A stretch of 64,000 bases of DNA from Escherichia coli (GCF_030384885.1 NZ_CP128613.1), one strand, 5' to 3'. Positions 2,764 to 23,959 are shown, numbered from the stretch's first letter. The notes: generated from the sequence alone by a model not told the origin. Made by a program: numbers and translations.

Positions 2764-4797
2764 TTATTTCACCTGATGGCCCGGTTTAGCACCGGCATCC
2801 GGGCTTAGCAGGAAAATATCTTTCCCGCCAGGACCAGCAGCCATCACCATGCCTTCAGAGATACCGAAGCGCATTTTACGTGGTGCCAGGTTAGCCACCA
2901 TAATGGTGTGACGACCAATCAGTGCCTGCGGATCCGGGTAGGCAGAACGAATGCCGGAGAAGACATTGCGTTTTTCACCGCCGAGATCCAGCGTCAGGCG
3001 CAGCAGTTTGTCAGAACCTTCAACAAACTCTGCGTTTTCAATCAGCGCCACGCGCAGGTCAACTTTAGCGAAGTCGTCAAAGGTGATGGTTTCCTGAATC
3101 GGATCATCTGCCAGCGGGCCAGTCACGGGGGCGGCAGTGGCTTTCACTTCTTCTTTAGACGCTTCCACCAGTGCTTCAACCTGCTTCATGTCAATACGGT
3201 TATACAGCGCCTTGAACGGATTCACTTTGTGGCCCAGCAGCGGTTGCTGGATACCATGCCAGGTCAGTTCCGTATTGAGGAATGCTTCTGCACGCTCGGT
3301 CAGTTTCGGCAGTACCGGCTTCAGGTAAGTCATCAGCACGCGGAACAGGTTTATGCCCATCGAGCAAATTGCCTGCAGGTCGGCATCGCGGCCTTCCTGT
3401 TTCGCCACCACCCACGGAGCCTGTTCATCGACATAGCGGTTAGCCAGATCAGCCAGCGCCATAATTTCGCGCACTGCTTTACCAAATTCGCGGCTTTCCC
3501 ATGCTTCACCAATCACTTCAGCGGCATCCGTGAAGGTTTTGTACAACTGCGGGTCAGCCAGTTCGCTTGCCAACACGCCGTCAAAACGCTTGTTGATAAA
3601 GCCCGCGTTACGGGATGCCAGGTTTACAACCTTATTAACGATATCGGCATTCACGCGCTGGACGAAATCCTCGAGGTTGAGATCGATATCATCAATGCGC
3701 GAAGAGAGTTTCGCAGTGTAGTAGTAACGCAGGCTGTCAGCGTCAAAATGATTCAGCCAGGTGCTGGCTTTAATAAAGGTGCCGCGAGACTTGGACATCT
3801 TCGCGCCGTTCACCGTTACATAGCCGTGAACAAACAGGTTGGTCGGCTTGCGGAAGTTGCTACCTTCCAACATGGCAGGCCAGAACAGGCTGTGGAAGTA
3901 AACGATATCTTTACCGATGAAGTGGTACAGTTCGGCGGTGGAGTCTTTCTTCCAGTATTCATCGAAGCTTACGCTGTCGCCGCGCTTGTCGCACAGATTC
4001 TTGAAGGAACCCATGTAGCCAATCGGCGCGTCCAGCCAGACGTAGAAATATTTGCCCGGCGCGTTCGGAATTTCAAAACCGAAGTACGGTGCATCGCGGG
4101 AGATATCCCACTGTTGCAGACCGGACTCAAACCACTCCTGCATTTTGTTTGCCACCTGCTCCTGCAACGCGCCGCTGCGGGTCCATGCCTGCAACATTTC
4201 GCTGAAAGAAGGCAGATCAAAGAAGAAGTGTTCAGAATCACGCATTACCGGGGTAGCGCCAGAAACCACCGATTTCGGCTCGATCAGTTCAGTCGGGCTG
4301 TAGGTCGCGCCGCAGACTTCGCAGTTATCGCCGTATTGATCCGGGGATTTACATTTCGGGCAGGTGCCTTTTACAAAACGGTCCGGCAGGAACATGCCTT
4401 TTTCCGGATCGTACAGCTGAGAGATGGTGCGGTTTTTAATAAAACCGTTTTCTTTCAGGCGAGAATAGATAAGTTCTGACAACTGGCGGTTCTCTTCGCT
4501 GTGCGTCGAGTGATAGTTGTCATAGCTGATGTTAAAGCCTGCAAAATCAGTCTGATGTTCCTGACTCATTTCGCCAATCATCTGCTCCGGAGTGATACCA
4601 AGCTGCTGAGCTTTCAGCATGATCGGTGTACCGTGGGCATCGTCGGCGCAGATGAAGTTGACCTCGTGGCCGCGCATTCGCTGGTAACGGACCCAGACAT
4701 CAGCCTGGATGTGCTCCAGCATATGGCCGAGGTGGATTGAGCCGTTAGCGTACGGCAGTGCGCACGTCACCAGAATTTTCTTCGCGACTTGAGTCAT
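2764..4797 (-). CDS. metG: methionyl-tRNA synthetase
   Basis: Track ORF 2764..4806; HIGH-type motif (HLGHMLEH) and KMSKS motif present. Start moved to internal Met ([19 protein letters not shown]) to give the 677-aa length I recall. Confidence 0.93.
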
Positions 4798-4928
4798 AGT
4801 AGGCATTACTTCTTAATAGTGAAAAGGGGTTAGATAGTACCAAATGGGAAAATGTTAAGTAAGTACTTCTCTATATTCTTCAGGTAAACTATCAGCTGAT
4901 GGTTTATCTATACAAAAAAGGAGTCGGG

Positions 4929-13796: not shown

Positions 13797-14585
13797 ATGC
13801 AAGTCGACCTGCTGAGTTCCGCGCAATCAGCGCACGCGTTAAACCTCTTTTACCAACACTCTCCTCTTGTGCATTGCATGACCAATGATGTGGTGCAAAC
13901 CTTTACTGCCAATACTTTACTGGTGCTCGGTGCATCGCCAGCGATGGTTATCGAAGCAGAAGAGGCCAGTCAGTTTGCGGCTATCGCCAGTGCCTTGCTA
14001 ATTAACGTCGGCACGCTGACGCAGCCACGCGCACAGGCAATGCGTGCTGCCGTTGAACAGGCAACACACTCCCAAACGCCCTGGACGCTTGATCCGGTCG
14101 CGGTTGGCGCACTCGATTATCGTCGCCATTTTTGTCATGAACTTTTATCTTTTAAACCGGCAGCGATACGTGGTAATGCTTCGGAAATCATGGCATTAGC
14201 TGGCGTTGCTAATGGTGGACGGGGAGTGGACACCACTGACGCCGCGGCTAACGCGATACCTGCTGCACAAACACTGGCACGGGAAACTGGCGCAATCGTC
14301 GTGGTCACTGGCGAGGTGGATTATATTACCGATGGTCGTCGCACCGTTGGCATTCACGGCGGCGATCCGTTAATGACCAAAGTGGTAGGAACTGGCTGTG
14401 CATTATCGGCGGTTGTCGCTGCCTGTTGTGCGTTACCAGGTGATACGCTGGAAAATGTCGCATCTGCCTGTCACTGGATGAAACAAGCCGGAGAACGCGC
14501 CGTCGCCAGAAGTGAAGGGCCTGGCAGTTTTGTTCCCCATTTTCTTGATGCGCTCTGGCAATTGACGCAGGAGGTGCAGGCATGA
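13797..14585 (+). CDS. thiM: hydroxyethylthiazole kinase
   Basis: 262 aa; preceded by the TPP riboswitch; overlaps thiD start by 4 nt. Confidence 0.92.
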
Positions 14586-15382
14586 AACGAATTAACGCTC
14601 TGACGATTGCCGGTACTGATCCGAGCGGTGGCGCAGGGATTCAGGCCGATCTTAAAACCTTCTCGGCACTTGGCGCTTATGGTTGCTCAGTTATTACTGC
14701 ACTGGTGGCGCAAAATACCCGTGGCGTACAGTCGGTGTATCGCATTGAGCCTGATTTTGTCGCCGCCCAGCTCGATTCGGTGTTCACTGATGTGCGAATC
14801 GACACCACTAAAATCGGTATGTTGGCGGAAACCGATATTGTTGAAGCGGTGGCAGAACGGTTGCAACGTTATCAGATCCAAAACGTGGTACTCGACACCG
14901 TTATGCTGGCAAAAAGCGGCGACCCTCTGCTTTCACCTTCGGCGGTTGCCACGCTGCGCAGTCGATTATTGCCACAGGTTTCATTAATAACGCCAAACTT
15001 GCCCGAAGCTGCCGCCTTGCTCGACGCGCCACACGCGCGCAACGAACAGGAAATGCTGGAACAAGGGCGATCGCTGTTGGCGATGGGTTGTGGCGCAGTG
15101 CTAATGAAAGGTGGTCATCTGGATGATGAGCAAAGCCCGGACTGGCTGTTTACCCGAGAGGGGGAACAACGGTTTACTGCACCGCGCATTATGACCAAAA
15201 ACACCCACGGCACTGGTTGTACGCTCTCTGCGGCGTTGGCTGCACTACGCCCGCGCCATACAAACTGGGCTGACACCGTACAGGAGGCAAAAAGCTGGCT
15301 TTCATCGGCGTTAGCCCAGGCCGACACGCTGGAAGTTGGCGACGGTATTGGTCCGGTTCACCACTTCCACGCCTGGTGGTGA
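14582..15382 (+). CDS. thiD: hydroxymethylpyrimidine / phosphomethylpyrimidine kinase
   Basis: 266 aa, ribokinase-like fold; translationally coupled to thiM. Confidence 0.92.
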
Positions 15383-15437
15383 GCACCGTACTATAGCTGC
15401 TTTGGTTATTGTCAGTCTTTGGCGCTGACATTCAGGG

Positions 15438-16265
15438 ATGAAACCAATGCAACTGAGAATCACCAGTCGAAAAAAATTCACCGCTTTATTATGCGCTCTG
15501 GGGCTCATTTCTATCGTTGCGATTTATCCGCGTCAGACGGTGAATTTTTTCTATTCGACAGCAATTCAGATTAAAGACTACATCCACTTCTACGGTTATC
15601 GCCCGGTCAAATCTTTTTCTATTCGCATTCCTGCCGCTTATACCATTCACGGAATAGATGTTTCGCGCTGGCAGGAGCGGATCGACTGGCAGCGGGTGGC
15701 TAAAATGCGCGATAACGGTATTCGCTTGCAATTTGCCTTTATCAAGGCGACGGAAGGCGAAAAGCTGGTGGATCCGTATTTTTCGCGTAACTGGCAACTA
15801 AGCCGCGAAAATGGCTTGCTGCGCGGGGCGTATCATTATTTCTCCCCGTCGGTATCCGCTTCAGTTCAGGCGCGATTATTTCTGCAAACGGTGGATTTCT
15901 CACAAGGCGATCTCCCTGCCGTGCTGGACGTAGAAGAACGGGGAAAATTATCGGCAAAAGAATTACGCAAGCGGGTAAGTCAGTGGCTAAAAATGGTCGA
16001 AAAACGCACGGGAAAAAAGCCGATTATTTACTCAGGAGCCGTTTTTTATCACACCAATCTGGCGGGCTATTTCAATGAATATCCGTGGTGGGTGGCTCAC
16101 TATTATCAACGTCGTCCGGACAATGACGGCATGGCCTGGCGCTTCTGGCAGCATTCCGACCGTGGACAGGTAGATGGCATTAATGGTCCGGTGGATTTTA
16201 ATGTGTTTAATGGCACGGTGGAGGAGTTGCAGGCATTCGTTGATGGGATTAAAGAAACGCCTTAA
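15438..16265 (+). CDS. yegX: predicted GH25-family lysozyme/muramidase-like exported protein
   Basis: 275-aa ORF with N-terminal hydrophobic segment; the true start may be the Met at 15447. Confidence 0.75.
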   Translation: MKPMQLRITSRKKFTALLCALGLISIVAIYPRQTVNFFYSTAIQIKDYIHFYGYRPVKSFSIRIPAAYTIHGIDVSRWQERIDWQRVAKMRDNGIRLQFAFIKATEGEKLVDPYFSRNWQLSRENGLLRGAYHYFSPSVSASVQARLFLQTVDFSQGDLPAVLDVEERGKLSAKELRKRVSQWLKMVEKRTGKKPIIYSGAVFYHTNLAGYFNEYPWWVAHYYQRRPDNDGMAWRFWQHSDRGQVDGINGPVDFNVFNGTVEELQAFVDGIKETP

Positions 16266-16316
16266 ATAAGAAGCAGTGATATACTCCCACCAGACTCCCT
16301 GGCAGGAAAAAGACAA

Positions 16317-17063
16317 ATGGAACAAGCGCATACCCAGCTGATTGCCCAACTGAACGAACGTATTTTAGCGGCGGATAACACGCCGCTTTATATTAAGTTT
16401 GCCGAAACGGTGAAAAATGCCGTGCGCAGCGGGGTGCTGGAACATGGCAATATTTTACCCGGCGAGCGCGATTTAAGTCAGTTAACTGGCGTTTCGCGCA
16501 TTACGGTGCGCAAGGCGATGCAGGCGCTGGAAGAAGAGGGGGTGGTGACGCGTTCGCGCGGTTATGGCACGCAGATCAACAACATCTTCGAATACTCGTT
16601 GAAAGAAGCGCGAGGTTTTTCTCAGCAGGTGGTATTGCGCGGGAAAAAGCCCGATACGCTATGGGTTAACAAGCGTGTCGTGAAATGTCCCGAAGAAGTC
16701 GCGCAGCAGCTGGCGGTCGAAGCGGGAAGTGATGTCTTTTTGCTTAAGCGTATTCGCTATGTCGATGAAGAAGCGGTATCGATTGAGGAATCGTGGGTTC
16801 CGGCGCATTTAATTCATGATGTTGATGCCATCGGAATTTCTCTTTATGACTACTTCCGCAGCCAGCACATTTACCCACAACGTACCCGTTCCCGCGTTAG
16901 CGCCCGGATGCCGGATGCCGAGTTTCAGTCACATATTCAATTAGATAGTAAAATACCGGTGCTGGTGATCAAGCAAGTGGCGCTTGACCAACAGCAACGG
17001 CCTATTGAGTACAGCATCAGCCACTGTCGCAGTGATCTATACGTTTTTGTGTGCGAGGAGTAG
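16317..17063 (+). CDS. yegW: GntR-family transcriptional regulator (HTH plus UTRA-like C-terminal domain)
   Basis: 248 aa; N-terminal winged-HTH region (GERDLSQLTGVSRITVRKAMQALEEEGVV). Confidence 0.85.
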   Translation: MEQAHTQLIAQLNERILAADNTPLYIKFAETVKNAVRSGVLEHGNILPGERDLSQLTGVSRITVRKAMQALEEEGVVTRSRGYGTQINNIFEYSLKEARGFSQQVVLRGKKPDTLWVNKRVVKCPEEVAQQLAVEAGSDVFLLKRIRYVDEEAVSIEESWVPAHLIHDVDAIGISLYDYFRSQHIYPQRTRSRVSARMPDAEFQSHIQLDSKIPVLVIKQVALDQQQRPIEYSISHCRSDLYVFVCEE

Positions 17064-18002
17064 TTCCTCGCGGGTTGGCGCGCAATCACCGCCGCGATGC
17101 CCGACAACCCACGACGCCACTGCATTGCCCAGCAATACGGCATCCGGCAGTGGCAGACCAGAGGCCAGCCCGGCAAGTACGCCACCGGCATGACTGTCGC
17201 CCGCCCCAATGGTGTCTACAACTTGCGTTGGAAATGCCGGAATGCAGCCAGAAGCGTCGTTGCTGAAATACCATGCGCCTTCTTTATCGAGACGAACGAT
17301 CAACGGCGCGGCAAATTTCTCCTGCCATTGCTTGCCAAGTGTTGTTATCTCTGCGGATAAAGCAAAACGTTCGGCGGCAATCTCAGCCTCCTGACGATTG
17401 AGTGACACTAAAGGTCGACAGGCCATGATCCGCGCCAGTAATGCGTCCGGGATATCGCCAATACGTGGGCCAAAATCGATAAACGGCGTCACGTCTTGCA
17501 GCTTTTCCAGCCATTCCACTAACAATTCGCCGCAGGGCGAGGCCAGTTGATAACCGGAAAAATAGAGCAGGCTGCCAGGCGCAACGGTTAATCGCGCCAA
17601 CCATTGGCGATTCCACTGATTTTCCACACCGCTGAATGACATAAAAGTGCGTTCGCCATCCGGCTCAACCAGCGCCAGACACCAGCCGTTATCACCTTCG
17701 GCGTTATCGATCTGGCTGATTAAGCCCTCTTTTGCCATCCGGTTGCGAATAATCTCCGCCCAAACCCCCTGACCGAGCGGCAAGGCATTACCCGCTTCGA
17801 TGCCGAGGCGCTTTAACGCCACGGCAATATTCAGTGCGCAGCCGCCAACGTTAACGCTCTGCTGTTTCAGTTCGATATCGCACCCACGCCAGGGGAGGGC
17901 ATAAGCGTCGGCGATCACGTCAATGACCGCCGCGCCGACGACCATCACCGGCTGACGCGTGGTTAATTCAGGCAGCAGCGTGTGTAATCGAGCGCCGCTC
18001 AT
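17037..18002 (-). CDS. yegV: PfkB/ribokinase-family sugar or nucleoside kinase
   Basis: 321 aa; GAGD motif near the C-terminus (DTIGAGDSHAGG); 3' end overlaps the yegW 3' end by 27 nt (convergent). Confidence 0.85.
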   Translation of the reverse strand: MSGARLHTLLPELTTRQPVMVVGAAVIDVIADAYALPWRGCDIELKQQSVNVGGCALNIAVALKRLGIEAGNALPLGQGVWAEIIRNRMAKEGLISQIDNAEGDNGWCLALVEPDGERTFMSFSGVENQWNRQWLARLTVAPGSLLYFSGYQLASPCGELLVEWLEKLQDVTPFIDFGPRIGDIPDALLARIMACRPLVSLNRQEAEIAAERFALSAEITTLGKQWQEKFAAPLIVRLDKEGAWYFSNDASGCIPAFPTQVVDTIGAGDSHAGGVLAGLASGLPLPDAVLLGNAVASWVVGHRGGDCAPTREELLLAHKNV

Positions 18003-19003
18003 ACCGCCTCCCGTTGTTGACGATACTTCGCCAGCGCTGTGGCATAGCGGTTGAAATCAAGCTGATTTACCGCATCCAGTTCCGCCTTTAACGCAGGATC
18101 GATAGCGTTAACGCCATGCAACGCGCCGCAAATTGCCGTCGCCATAGCACCGATGGTGTCTGTGTCGCCGCCAAGGTTAGCGCACAGGACGGCGCAACGG
18201 TTCGGGTCGGTTTGTGCCAGTTCAACCAGCGCAATGGCGCACGGAACGGACTCAATAGTGCTGGTACCTGCGCCAATGACCTGGTAAAGCTGTTCGCTGG
18301 CGGATTCGGTGCCGTCGGCATTGCGCACAATTTTCAGCGCAATCTCCAGGCGTGCCGCCAGTGAGGCGCTGAAGGTGGTGATGCGTTTTTGCTGTGCATG
18401 TCGCGCAATCGAGGGTAGAGAATCAACAATCGCTGACCAGCTTTCTCCGTCAATGGCACGGGAAATCGCCCATGCGATGACTACCGCACCTGCAACCGCC
18501 AGATCGGATTTATGGGTCGGGCTGGACGCCAGCGCCACATCATCAATAAAGGAATCAACATCGCGCGCCGGAAGCAAACAACCTAATGGCGAGACGCGCA
18601 TCGCTGCGCCGTTGGTCACGCCATTGTTTTCCAGTTCAGCAACGGGTTTACCGTCGCGAATGGCGTTGAGAGCAATCTTCGAGGTCGGACCTAGTACGTT
18701 TTTGTTAAAGGCGTCGAAACGCAGCGCCCAGTCGAGAATATTACGCCCAATCAGATCCGGATCGATCTCGCCTTCACGTTCCAGTAACGCATCCGCCAGA
18801 CACAGCGCCATTGAGGTATCGTCGGTGAATTCGGCGCGGTTAAAATAACAGGCCGCGTTATTCTCCTTTGGGCCAGGCAAAAAACGGTCAATCCAGCCAA
18901 AGTGTGCTTTAACGCGGCTGCGTGGCCAAAGCTCGGACGGCATCCCCATCGCATCCCCTAACGCCTGCCCGTAAAGAGCACCGAGAATACGTTCTGTTTT
19001 CAT
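17999..19003 (-). CDS. yegU: ADP-ribosylglycohydrolase-family protein
   Basis: 334 aa; 4-nt overlaps with yegV and yegT indicate an operon. Confidence 0.85.
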   Translation of the reverse strand: MKTERILGALYGQALGDAMGMPSELWPRSRVKAHFGWIDRFLPGPKENNAACYFNRAEFTDDTSMALCLADALLEREGEIDPDLIGRNILDWALRFDAFNKNVLGPTSKIALNAIRDGKPVAELENNGVTNGAAMRVSPLGCLLPARDVDSFIDDVALASSPTHKSDLAVAGAVVIAWAISRAIDGESWSAIVDSLPSIARHAQQKRITTFSASLAARLEIALKIVRNADGTESASEQLYQVIGAGTSTIESVPCAIALVELAQTDPNRCAVLCANLGGDTDTIGAMATAICGALHGVNAIDPALKAELDAVNQLDFNRYATALAKYRQQREAV

Positions 19004-20277
19004 TTAACTTCCCCTTGTGTCAACGCAATATCGCGATCATCGACCTTGATAGCCGTAATTTCGTTGTCGGATTCGCGGAAAAAAATCATGAACAGCACGG
19101 CGATAATGGCAATCATCACCGCGCCGAAAGTCCACATCCCGGACCAGTTGAAAGTCAGTCCGTTTACCGGTTCCGGATAAGCGAACATCTTTTCCATCAT
19201 CACACCGCCAAGACGATAGCCGAGCAAACTGCCGAATCCCTGGCAGCAGAGCGTGATCAGCCCCTGCGCAGCGGTACGCATATGCACGGGGGCTTTTTTA
19301 TCGACATAGATGTAAGCGGTAACGTAGTAAAAATCGTAACTTACTCCATGCAGCAAAATGCCGAGGAACAGTAACGCGTAGGTGAAATATTCATCCGCAC
19401 TACCGTAAATAAAGAAGCCATAGCGGATCGCAGCGGTGACCAGACCAAGTAATAATACCTTTTTGATACCAAAGCGTTTGGTAAAAAACGGCAATGCCAG
19501 CATAAAGAAGATTTCAGAGAACTGGCCGAGCGTCATCCAGCCGGTGGCATTTTTCATGCCGACTTCGGTCAGATAACCGTTGGCAAAGATGTAATAGAAC
19601 GCCAACGGCATCGCAAACAGGAATGAACAGAAGAAAAAGACGAGGAAGTTTTTATCGCGCAGCAGGATCAGCGCATCCAGTCCGAGCATGACTTTAATGT
19701 CCATTTTGCCGGTGCTTTTTGGCGGCGTGTCAGGCAGGAAAAACGCAAACACACCGAGCAGAGCAGAACTTCCGGCGGTAATCAGCAGCGGGATGTTAGT
19801 CGGAGAGATATCGGCATAACCCAGCATTTGCGGCAAGAATCCACATGCCAGACCGGAGGCAATCCAGCCGATAGTGCCCATCACACGAATGCGTGGGAAA
19901 TCACGCTCCACATCCGGCACGTTGGCAAAAGCGATACTGTTAGTCAGCGCAATGGTCGGCATATAGGTTAGCGAGTAGGCCAGCAGTAACGGGAAGAAGC
20001 CGGCAAAAGTGGTCTGTTGCGCAGCGAAATACATCAGCGCCGCACCAGCGAACATCAATACCGCCAGCACTTTCTGCGCCGAGAAAAAGCGGTCAGTGAT
20101 GGAGCCAACCAGAATTGGCGACAGGATCGCTGCAATGGCGGTACAGGCATACGACCAACCAATTTCTCCGGCACTAAAACCGCTTTTACTTAACCACAAC
20201 CACAATGGCACAAACCACGCGCCCCAGATAAACCATTCAACAAACATCATGAACGACAGCTTTGCTGTTGTTTTCAT
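19000..20277 (-). CDS. yegT: MFS nucleoside:H+ symporter-family transporter
   Basis: 425-aa polytopic membrane protein; first gene of yegTUV. Confidence 0.85.
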   Translation of the reverse strand: MKTTAKLSFMMFVEWFIWGAWFVPLWLWLSKSGFSAGEIGWSYACTAIAAILSPILVGSITDRFFSAQKVLAVLMFAGAALMYFAAQQTTFAGFFPLLLAYSLTYMPTIALTNSIAFANVPDVERDFPRIRVMGTIGWIASGLACGFLPQMLGYADISPTNIPLLITAGSSALLGVFAFFLPDTPPKSTGKMDIKVMLGLDALILLRDKNFLVFFFCSFLFAMPLAFYYIFANGYLTEVGMKNATGWMTLGQFSEIFFMLALPFFTKRFGIKKVLLLGLVTAAIRYGFFIYGSADEYFTYALLFLGILLHGVSYDFYYVTAYIYVDKKAPVHMRTAAQGLITLCCQGFGSLLGYRLGGVMMEKMFAYPEPVNGLTFNWSGMWTFGAVMIAIIAVLFMIFFRESDNEITAIKVDDRDIALTQGEVK

Positions 20278-20533
20278 CTTTTAATTCCTTCATGACAGGT
20301 AATGTAAGGTACGCGATGACAATACCATTTAATAATACCTTTTAAATACCTTTGTGGTGAAAAATTGACCGCGGTAACATTTTTTCTGATGAATCGAGCC
20401 AACAGAAAACGCTGAAAAAACATCCAAAAGATGGAAAAACTCGCCTGTAACGACCAGGATTATGATTGCCCGCAAAAGGCGGGCCAGGACAATCCATAGC
20501 CGATATCCAATCGGAATTTACGGGAGCATAGTA

Positions 20534-21586
20534 ATGACAGATATTGCGCAGTTGCTTGGCAAAGACGCCGACAACCTTTTACAGCACCGTTGTATGACTA
20601 TTCCTTCTGACCAGCTTTATCTCCCCGGACATGACTACGTAGACCGCGTGATGATTGACAATAATCGCCCGCCAGCGGTGTTACGTAATATGCAGACGTT
20701 GTACAACACTGGGCGTCTGGCTGGCACAGGATATCTTTCTATTCTGCCGGTTGACCAGGGCGTTGAGCACTCTGCCGGAGCTTCATTTGCCGCTAACCCG
20801 CTCTACTTTGACCCGAAAAACATTGTTGAACTGGCGATCGAAGCGGGCTGTAACTGTGTGGCGTCAACCTACGGCGTGCTGGCATCGGTATCGCGGCGTT
20901 ACGCGCATCGCATTCCATTCCTCGTCAAACTTAATCACAACGAGACGCTAAGTTACCCGAATACCTACGATCAAACGCTGTATGCCAGCGTGGAGCAGGC
21001 GTTCAACATGGGCGCGGTGGCGGTTGGGGCGACTATCTATTTTGGCTCGGAAGAGTCACGTCGCCAGATTGAAGAAATTTCTGCGGCCTTTGAACGCGCG
21101 CATGAGCTGGGCATGGTGACCGTGCTGTGGGCCTATTTGCGTAACTCCGCCTTTAAGAAAGATGGCGTTGATTACCATGTTTCCGCCGACCTGACAGGTC
21201 AGGCGAACCATCTGGCGGCAACCATAGGTGCAGATATCGTCAAACAAAAAATGGCGGAAAATAACGGCGGTTATAAAGCGATTAATTACGGTTATACCGA
21301 CGATCGCGTGTACAGCAAGTTGACCAGCGAAAACCCGATTGATCTGGTGCGTTATCAGTTAGCTAACTGCTATATGGGCCGGGCAGGGTTGATAAACTCC
21401 GGCGGTGCTGCAGGCGGTGAAACTGACCTCAGCGATGCAGTGCGTACTGCGGTCATCAACAAACGCGCTGGCGGAATGGGGCTGATTCTTGGACGTAAGG
21501 CGTTCAAGAAATCGATGGCTGACGGCGTGAAACTGATTAACGCCGTGCAGGACGTTTATCTCGATAGCAAAATTACTATCGCCTGA
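20534..21586 (+). CDS. fbaB: class I fructose-bisphosphate aldolase
   Basis: Track ORF 20462..21586; start moved to [16 protein letters not shown], giving 350 aa. Confidence 0.9.

Positions 21587-21801: not shown

Positions 21802-23959
<2,158 letters not shown>

Follow-up and report, generated by a model that had tools for sequence, protein, structure and literature searches.

What are the three genes yegT, yegU and yegV for, and what does their repressor YegW sense? We addressed this question in a stretch of 64,000 nucleotides of Escherichia coli DNA (NZ_CP128613.1, assembly GCF_030384885.1; hereafter the window, 64 kb), in which these genes, together with yegW and the neighbouring yegX, occupy positions 15438-20277. 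The sole function published so far, the control of glycogen through ADP-glucose proposed by Saito et al. 2024, who renamed YegW as GgaR (PMC10819704), fits the enzymology poorly. From the analyses described below, we consider it rather probable that yegTUV is one unit under YegW that serves the uptake and dismantling of a non-canonical riboside. A preliminary description of the same DNA, made from the sequence alone, had already proposed an operon for a nucleoside-like or ribosylated substrate; this core reading agrees with all the evidence, its catabolic side being still a proposal, although it was presented as open when it was largely published, and the rival explanation by ADP-glucose and glycogen was missed. 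In fact, the operon, its regulator and the idea of an 'unknown nucleoside' are not new, as all had been published. What is new with respect to the literature is the pairing and fusion of hydrolase and kinase, the swapping of transporters, the operator footprint, the intact catalytic set of YegU and the exclusion of yegX from the module.

The operon is encoded on the minus strand. Its first gene, yegT (19000-20277, 425 aa), specifies an NHS-family (NupG-like) proton symporter (Nuc_H_symport, 6e-183) and is followed by yegU (17999-19003, 334 aa), predicted to encode a two-metal glycohydrolase of ribosyl type with the ADP-ribosylglycohydrolase (ARH) fold (Pfam ADP_ribosyl_GH, 8e-67), and by yegV (17037-18002, 321 aa), which encodes a PfkB-family kinase (Pfam PfkB, 8e-56). 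On the plus strand, yegW or ggaR (16317-17063, 248 aa) encodes a GntR/HutC-type repressor (GntR 3e-16, UTRA 2e-36). The yegT/yegU and yegU/yegV junctions each consist of a 4-nt ATGA overlap, and the coding sequences of yegV and yegW converge with a 27-nt overlap of their 3' ends (17037-17063), all read from the sequence. The preliminary description had reported these overlaps as well as the positions and family assignments of the five open reading frames (ORFs), and our Pfam searches bore out the latter with E-values of 1e-16 to 1e-183. It had also named a finding that would have undone it, that the genes are not co-transcribed; this is contradicted by published Northern blots, in which yegT and yegV probes revealed one single 3.3-kb yegTUV mRNA, visible only in a yegW mutant (PMC10819704).

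YegU matches the profile PF03747 with 226.3 bits (cut-off 26.2) over model positions 1-285 of 287, and its AlphaFold2 model (pLDDT 97.7) has the all-alpha ARH fold. The best Foldseek matches were MJ1187 (template-modelling, TM, score 0.81), the Thermus protein 2cwc (0.71), ARH3 and DraG, all with TM scores of 0.71-0.81. The closest solved structures, MJ1187 (PDB 1t5j; phmmer 1e-29) and the Thermus thermophilus 'ADP-ribosylglycohydrolase-related protein' (2cwc), transfer no function to YegU because both come from structural genomics and have no substrate assigned to them. The metal-site residues T60, D61, D62, D280, D282 and T283 are kept in 73-80 of 80 relatives and match in the alignment the ARH3 set T76/D77/D78 and D314/D316/T317, while the Glu-flap residue Glu41 corresponds to E24, a position occupied by E in 50 and by Q in 17 of the 80 relatives. 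In ARH enzymes, the ribofuranose is bound at the metal site through its cis 2'',3''-diol and, in ARH3, F143 and Y149 form an adenine clamp. These two adenine-stacking residues align with N126 and V129 of YegU, so that the clamp appears to be missing; across the YegU family, neither position is aromatic, 126 being mostly R or K and 129 T, D or V. YegU also remains below the equivalog cut-offs of DraG (79.4 vs 337 bits) and Tri1 (68.5 vs 490). It thus shares with ARH1, ARH3, DraG and Tri1, at ~20-25% identity, the PF03747 domain, the all-alpha fold, the binuclear site (TDD, DxDT) and the Glu-flap glutamate; however, those enzymes act on alpha-linked ADP-ribosyl groups of proteins, poly-ADP-ribose or O-acetyl-ADP-ribose, whereas YegU is partnered with a kinase and a permease, not with a transferase.

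YegV, which a 2025 review of E. coli unknowns still lists as an 'uncharacterized sugar kinase', matches PF00294 with 190 bits and keeps the diol-binding aspartate D28, the GG pair (52-53), the N and NxxE positions (NRQE at 202) and the DTxGAGD motif (DTIGAGD at 263). It falls under every NCBIfam equivalog cut-off, including that of ribokinase (TIGR02152, 81.8 vs 299.65 bits), and is therefore no ribokinase proper. In ribokinase, as known from work on RbsK, the residues N14, K43 and E143 contact the ribose. In our alignment, N14 is replaced by V and K43 by C throughout the YegV clade. The best solved ribokinase matches YegV at an E-value of only 1e-15, and full-length identity to YegV is 31-43% for the unfused kinases that partner distant YegU homologs. 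Judged by its sequence, YegV belongs to a PfkB clade of its own that travels with YegU.

The transporter YegT matches the NHS family profile TIGR00889 well above the cut-off (651.8 vs 446.1 bits). Like its family members NupG and XapB, the latter encoded in xapABR, it carries the ribose-binding triad, which it retains as R136/T140/E264 of NupG while the base-contact residues are changed (PMC8042404). With only 27% identity to NupG and these other base contacts, it differs from both in showing no binding or transport of standard nucleosides or xanthosine: binding of uridine, adenosine, cytidine and guanosine was not detected by isothermal titration calorimetry (2025 crystal-structure paper), and uridine, cytidine, xanthosine and gemcitabine were not taken up in a transport study.

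The genomic context of YegU homologs ties the hydrolase to the kinase. We gathered 80 species loci from Enterobacteriaceae and Pectobacterium, with YegU proteins 77-99% identical, which also served for the operator footprint described below. The order fbaB / yegT-yegU-yegV / yegW / thiD was found in 66 of them, most of the others being incomplete contigs, and the 27-nt yegV/yegW overlap was retained in 73 of 78. A search among 1.84 billion representative proteins retrieved 6976 YegU relatives at E<=1e-3 and 236 at E<=1e-30. Among the best 150 relatives, 12 were 600-760 aa long; ten long homologs were scanned, and nine turned out to be fusions of ARH and PfkB domains (five PfkB-ARH and four ARH-PfkB) and one an ARH-ARH protein. 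In all ten genomic contexts looked up (32-56% identity to YegU), a YegV-like kinase adjoined the hydrolase or was fused to it. A metagenome scan contributed 80 further loci, and we counted partners over 53 locus groups, with hydrolases less than 75% identical between groups and neighbours called by seed-based labels. A PfkB gene adjoined the YegU-type hydrolase, or was fused to it, in at least 40 of the 53 groups, and a GntR/UTRA regulator gene adjoined in 22. The nearby transporter was of the NCS1 family in 22 groups, NHS in four, PnuC in three (confirmed by PF04973 and TIGR01528) and ECF/CbiQ in seven; all these families include carriers of ribosides or heterocycles. The hydrolase-kinase pair is thus conserved, co-evolving and repeatedly fused, with the transporter swapped among four families.

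In a rough neighbour-joining tree, all members of the clade of E. coli YegU had a kinase together with an NHS, NCS1 or PnuC transporter, and two of them had in addition a purine nucleoside phosphorylase of DeoD or PunA type. The other clade contained ECF-linked fusions, a group of high-GC loci in which the partner is of the isochorismatase family, and a subgroup devoid of PfkB. The high-GC loci (L094, L166, L168, L170, L171, L173, L175, L178 and L180) combine an NCS1 transporter, an isochorismatase-family hydrolase and an ARH-PfkB fusion; in L094, the sole locus of this set in which the junctions were read, stop and start codons overlap. By its score, the isochorismatase-family protein is not like the nicotinamidase PncA (25.6 bits vs a cut-off of 174), a hint that the aglycone handled by that clade carries an amide or ureide group. 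The PfkB-less subgroup (L154, L147, L155, L156, L158, L160 and L163) has instead a 269-aa AIRS-like protein, ECF/ABC parts, TonB-dependent receptors, a BtuF-like binding protein and a PHP-like lipoprotein. The neighbouring gene in L154, for a paralogous TonB receptor, is preceded by a cobalamin riboswitch (4625-4805, minus strand), and the subgroup may be a corrinoid-related variant. Two further arrangements were observed, namely two ARH domains in tandem in one close YegU relative (P0161, 692 aa) and a second ARH gene, of 464 aa, divergent from a GntR-PfkB-ARH operon (L097).

These features can be combined into a pathway. YegT would import a non-canonical riboside, YegV would phosphorylate the 5-OH of its ribosyl group, and YegU would then split the aglycone from C1 of the ribose, so that ribose 5-phosphate and the free aglycone result. 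This order, with the kinase acting first, is suggested by two considerations, the chemistry of ARH substrates, every known one of which has, to our knowledge, a phosphoester at the 5'' position of its ribose, and the precedent of pseudouridine degradation. In the latter, encoded by psuT/psuK/psuG (yeiM/yeiC/yeiN in E. coli), a permease is followed by a PfkB-family kinase that acts first and by a glycosidase that splits the 5'-phosphate into base and ribose 5-phosphate; some organisms carry kinase and glycosidase as one fused protein. The preliminary description had invoked this parallel, and it holds as far as a co-transcribed dedicated nucleoside permease, a PfkB-family kinase and a glycosidase are concerned; it ends at the enzyme families, since PsuG/YeiN has another fold, which cleaves a C-C bond, and the psu permease is of CNT type, whereas yegTUV has an ARH-fold hydrolase and an NHS-type permease. 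Because its glycosidase is ARH-fold and not PsuG, yegTUV may work like the psuKG systems without being one of them: it is a salvage design of permease, kinase and glycosidase with an ARH-fold enzyme in the place of the glycosidase. The class of substrate, the kinase-first order and the identity of the operator (see below) are what we infer from these comparisons.

Several observations weigh against this interpretation. The kinase-first order is drawn by analogy, and the replacement of ribokinase E143, which might have been counted as evidence for a riboside substrate of YegV, was dropped because two alignments disagree at this residue. The ARH enzymes characterised so far cut alpha-1'' linkages only. 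We know of few natural free alpha-ribosides, nor are we aware of any enzyme activity, growth phenotype or substrate for yegTUV. Our literature search by gene names, accessions and topics combining ARH and ribosides returned no paper that assigns a substrate to YegU or YegV. ADP-glucose is the sole effector shown to release YegW (PMC10819704), and the only phenotypes published concern glycogen. In the E. coli clade, we did not find any cluster-encoded enzyme acting on the aglycone, and an Rfam scan of 19 homologous loci and the window did not detect a riboswitch upstream of any ARH-kinase operon, the thiamine pyrophosphate (TPP), guanidine-I and cobalamin elements present in the scanned loci serving neighbouring genes. 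No NAD genes were found around the PnuC-type operon either and, given this and the riboswitch-free operons, the module is self-contained, with its own transporter, kinase, hydrolase and regulator. Since the known ARH enzymes are alpha-specific, either the substrate would be an alpha- or O-linked riboside or the YegU clade would differ from them in this respect.

A more general proposition, which we advance tentatively as a possibility, is that YegU-type proteins form a widespread ARH branch of phosphoriboside hydrolases for small molecules, not macromolecules, that constitutes, together with the YegV-type kinases, a new route of riboside degradation. If so, different bacteria would have plugged this route into four transporter families, and, all known ARH enzymes being alpha-specific, the compound degraded may be a riboside with an alpha linkage or some other unusual feature, out of reach of ordinary nucleoside hydrolases and phosphorylases. 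Candidates are poly-ADP-ribose debris, ribosides of cobamide lower ligands, a pyridine riboside or nucleotide, and a modified RNA nucleoside.

How YegW would control this pathway can be approached from its DNA targets. The protein has an N-terminal winged helix (PF00392, 59 bits) and a C-terminal UTRA domain (PF07702, 125 bits), which place it in the GntR/HutC subfamily. The published regulon of GgaR (Saito et al. 2024) concerns the same genes, the same operon, a single repressed target and two binding regions. ChIP-chip yielded a single genomic peak, in the fbaB/yegT spacer; the yegTUV mRNA rises ~30-fold in a yegW deletion by quantitative PCR, with fbaB unaffected; and in gel shifts YegW binds a probe of the 190 bp preceding yegT and, less strongly, one of nt 571-869 of the yegT ORF (PMC10819704). 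No operator motif or sequence was given in that work (PMC10819704). Upstream of yegT, we found three (A/T)GGTATT direct repeats with 11- and 13-nt spacing over the predicted -10 box, followed by GTACC, which pairs with the third repeat. The tandem GGTAT-N6-GGTATTATTA (20330-20350, minus strand), which covers the predicted -10, is our candidate for the primary GgaR operator: it is present in all 79 species loci (79/79) and falls inside the 190-bp probe shifted by GgaR. The third TGGTA repeat and the inverted GTACC (GGTA-N11-TACC; 20308-20327, minus strand) have invariant arms and a variable spacer. In the alignment of the 79 distinct upstream regions, CAAAGGTATTTAAAAGGTATTATT, TGGTA and GTACC were at least 97% invariant between variable flanks.

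The pattern GGTATNNAAAAGGTATTATTA occurs exactly twice in the window (0 expected), at 20330-20350 and at 19450-19470, and no further match was found in its 64 kb at up to two mismatches. Both sites coincide with the two regions of the published gel shifts, the second one, GGTATCAAAAAGGTATTATTA (19450-19470, minus strand; nt 808-828 of the yegT ORF), lying inside the weak-binding probe. This intragenic box is kept in only 27 of the 79 species, without excess synonymous conservation, so that we rejected it as a conserved operator and rate it as a candidate auxiliary GgaR box. We infer that the tandem GGTAT box is the GgaR operator: YegW would sit on the GGTAT-N6-GGTAT tandem over the -10, and the substrate or an intermediate of the pathway would release it. 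The predicted sigma-70 promoter of yegT (20332-20361, minus strand; TTCACC, 18 nt, TATTAT) has 9 of 12 matches in a consensus scan only. Just upstream of the predicted -35, the fbaB/yegT spacer contains a CRP-like palindrome, TGTTA-N6-TCAAT (TGTTAccgcggTCAAT, 20364-20379), an inverted repeat with a weak match that is partly conserved, namely at its TG, A and TCA positions, in the footprint of 79 species; for the same spacer, a CRP site is on record from published SELEX work. At the other end of the operon, yegV-yegW is one of the 165 listed convergent excludons of MG1655. Induced yegTUV transcription would run into yegW through the convergent 27-nt overlap, and induction might thereby lower yegW expression, that is, act as a positive feedback.

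The published alternative holds that GgaR senses ADP-glucose and that YegT, YegU and YegV act on or supply this compound, so that derepression raises glycogen (Saito et al. 2024). It is supported by the release of GgaR from the spacer probe by 10-100 µM ADP-glucose but not by ADP or glucose, and by a yegW deletion mutant that contains 2-3 times more glycogen and grows more slowly and poorly on glucose minimal medium (PMC10819704); a yegV deletion was, in addition, scored as 'glycogen-deficient' in a screen on ADP-glucose medium. However, these three ligands were the only ones tried (PMC10819704), ADP-ribose, NAD, nicotinamide mononucleotide (NMN) and nucleosides not being among them, and the wild type growing on 1% glucose is still ~30-fold repressed, the effect of glucose being only 3-fold (PMC10819704), which makes ADP-glucose at best a weak inducer. 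The enzymology points in the same direction, as the cis 2'',3''-diol that the ARH metal site binds is that of a ribofuranose. Glucopyranose lacks such a ribofuranose-type cis-diol. Moreover, the same hydrolase-kinase pair occurs elsewhere with NCS1, PnuC-type and ECF transporters, none of them a nucleotide-sugar carrier, and glg genes were seen in none of the contexts examined. We therefore regard the ADP-glucose model as quite unlikely. ADP-glucose is probably an in-vitro look-alike of the true YegW effector, and the effect of yegW loss on glycogen is probably indirect; as a speculation, the derepressed hydrolase and kinase could alter nucleotide or pentose-phosphate pools, such as those of AMP or ribose 5-phosphate, and thereby affect glycogen. 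A different objection concerns not the class of substrate but the order of the reactions: YegU might first free ribose from the imported compound and YegV then act as a ribokinase, as proposed for the ribose-utilisation systems (Rus) of Bacteroides (Glowacki et al.). Rus resembles yegTUV in combining ribokinase-type kinases, a permease and variable ribose-releasing hydrolases, sometimes of the ARH family, the genes of which adjoin ribokinases in Bacteroidetes Rus loci; it differs in being a ribose-induced polysaccharide utilization locus with SusC/D, in its kinase clade and in its type of regulator, and the role of its ARH proteins is a prediction only. Fusion and adjacency are compatible with either order, and ribokinase is the best named match of YegV, but its score lies far under the ribokinase cut-off and the whole YegV clade has replaced N14 and K43. 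Besides, E. coli already carries RbsK, and the 5''-phosphoester common to the known ARH substrates speaks for a phosphorylated substrate. We consider this hydrolase-first scavenging rather unlikely.

Two other readings appear highly improbable to us. One would have YegU reverse ADP-ribosylation, stripping ADP-ribose from a protein, a nucleic acid or a small signal as DraG, Tri1 and ARH3 do, with a kinase and a transporter that are unrelated or accessory. The ARH membership, fold and intact catalytic centre of YegU would suit such a role, but ADP-ribosyltransferase, toxin and nitrogenase partners were absent from the 53 contexts, the DraG and Tri1 cut-offs were not reached, the adenine clamp of ARH3 is lacking, and YegU is tightly linked or fused to a sugar-type kinase and a small-molecule permease. 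A related candidate, an ARH acting in anti-phage defence or toxin immunity, was rejected because the PADLOC defence models gave zero matches among the five proteins and no transferase was found in the 53 contexts. The other reading, just as improbable, is the salvage of a cofactor precursor, in which the phosphorylated riboside itself would be wanted (NMN from nicotinamide riboside, or an alpha-ribazole-type nucleotide) and YegU would be an overflow or editing hydrolase. PnuC-family, NCS1 (CytX-like) and ECF transporters are indeed typical carriers of vitamins and their precursors, and the PfkB-less sister subgroup lies near TonB receptors, a BtuF-like protein and a cobalamin riboswitch. Nevertheless, all operons of the E. 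coli clade lack an accompanying riboswitch as well as NAD, B12 and thiamine genes, and salvage would be self-defeating with the kinase fused to a hydrolase that breaks its product down. Within this reading, nicotinamide riboside, which the PnuC-family and isochorismatase partners had seemed to suggest, was retained only as a low-probability candidate, given that the isochorismatase-family partner does not resemble PncA and is found in the other clade and that the PnuC-type operon lacks NAD genes, and a cobamide or alpha-ribazole was rejected because corrinoid-type neighbours are confined to the sister subgroup without PfkB.

The riboside-degrading unit that we favour would extend well beyond E. 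coli, since yegTUV is conserved across Enterobacteriaceae and gut and soil bacteria of several lineages have the hydrolase-kinase pair as well, often as a fusion. The identity of its substrate would give three E. coli y-genes and thousands of homologs a function and would establish a first catabolic role of the ARH fold on small molecules. It would possibly also uncover the exchange of a nutrient or signal in the gut, and it would explain why loss of the repressor disturbs carbon storage and growth.

The fifth gene of the region, yegX (15438-16265, plus strand, 275 aa), encodes a GH25 muramidase-like protein (Pfam Glyco_hydro_25, 4e-55) with a hydrophobic anchor segment, FTALLCALGLISIVAIY, at its N-terminus; its RefSeq start, at 15447, is 9 nt later than the ORF start at 15438. 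The preliminary description correctly placed this GH25 gene beside the operon, but including it in the title and span of the cluster was not warranted, as yegX was present in only three of the 80 species loci, each from Escherichia. Another 65 species (within loci L006-L080) lack it and have yegW starting less than 200 bp past thiD on the same strand. We thus consider yegX a lineage-specific insertion, a neighbour outside the module. It was seemingly inserted between yegW and thiD, and a phage endolysin-like origin may be asked about. In non-Escherichia species, read-through from the TPP-riboswitch-controlled thiMD may reach yegW; in E. coli, yegX intervenes (14582-16317).

The whole region belongs to the E. 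coli core genome, the same gene names being annotated there in 5424 of 5426 complete genomes. The window equals the sequence of strain 2013C-4282, and its segment 15438-20461 is at least 99% identical in only two of 5425 matching E. coli records; as nearly all the others are 95-99% identical over this segment, the window represents a divergent E. coli lineage. The Rfam scan of the window detected no known RNA family within 15438-20277, the nearest element being a TPP riboswitch (RF00059, 13666-13762, plus strand, 71.5 bits) upstream of thiM. On the other side of the spacer, the longest fbaB ORF spans 20462-21586, with its start at 20462 and the RefSeq start at 20534, and gatY comes directly next at 21808.

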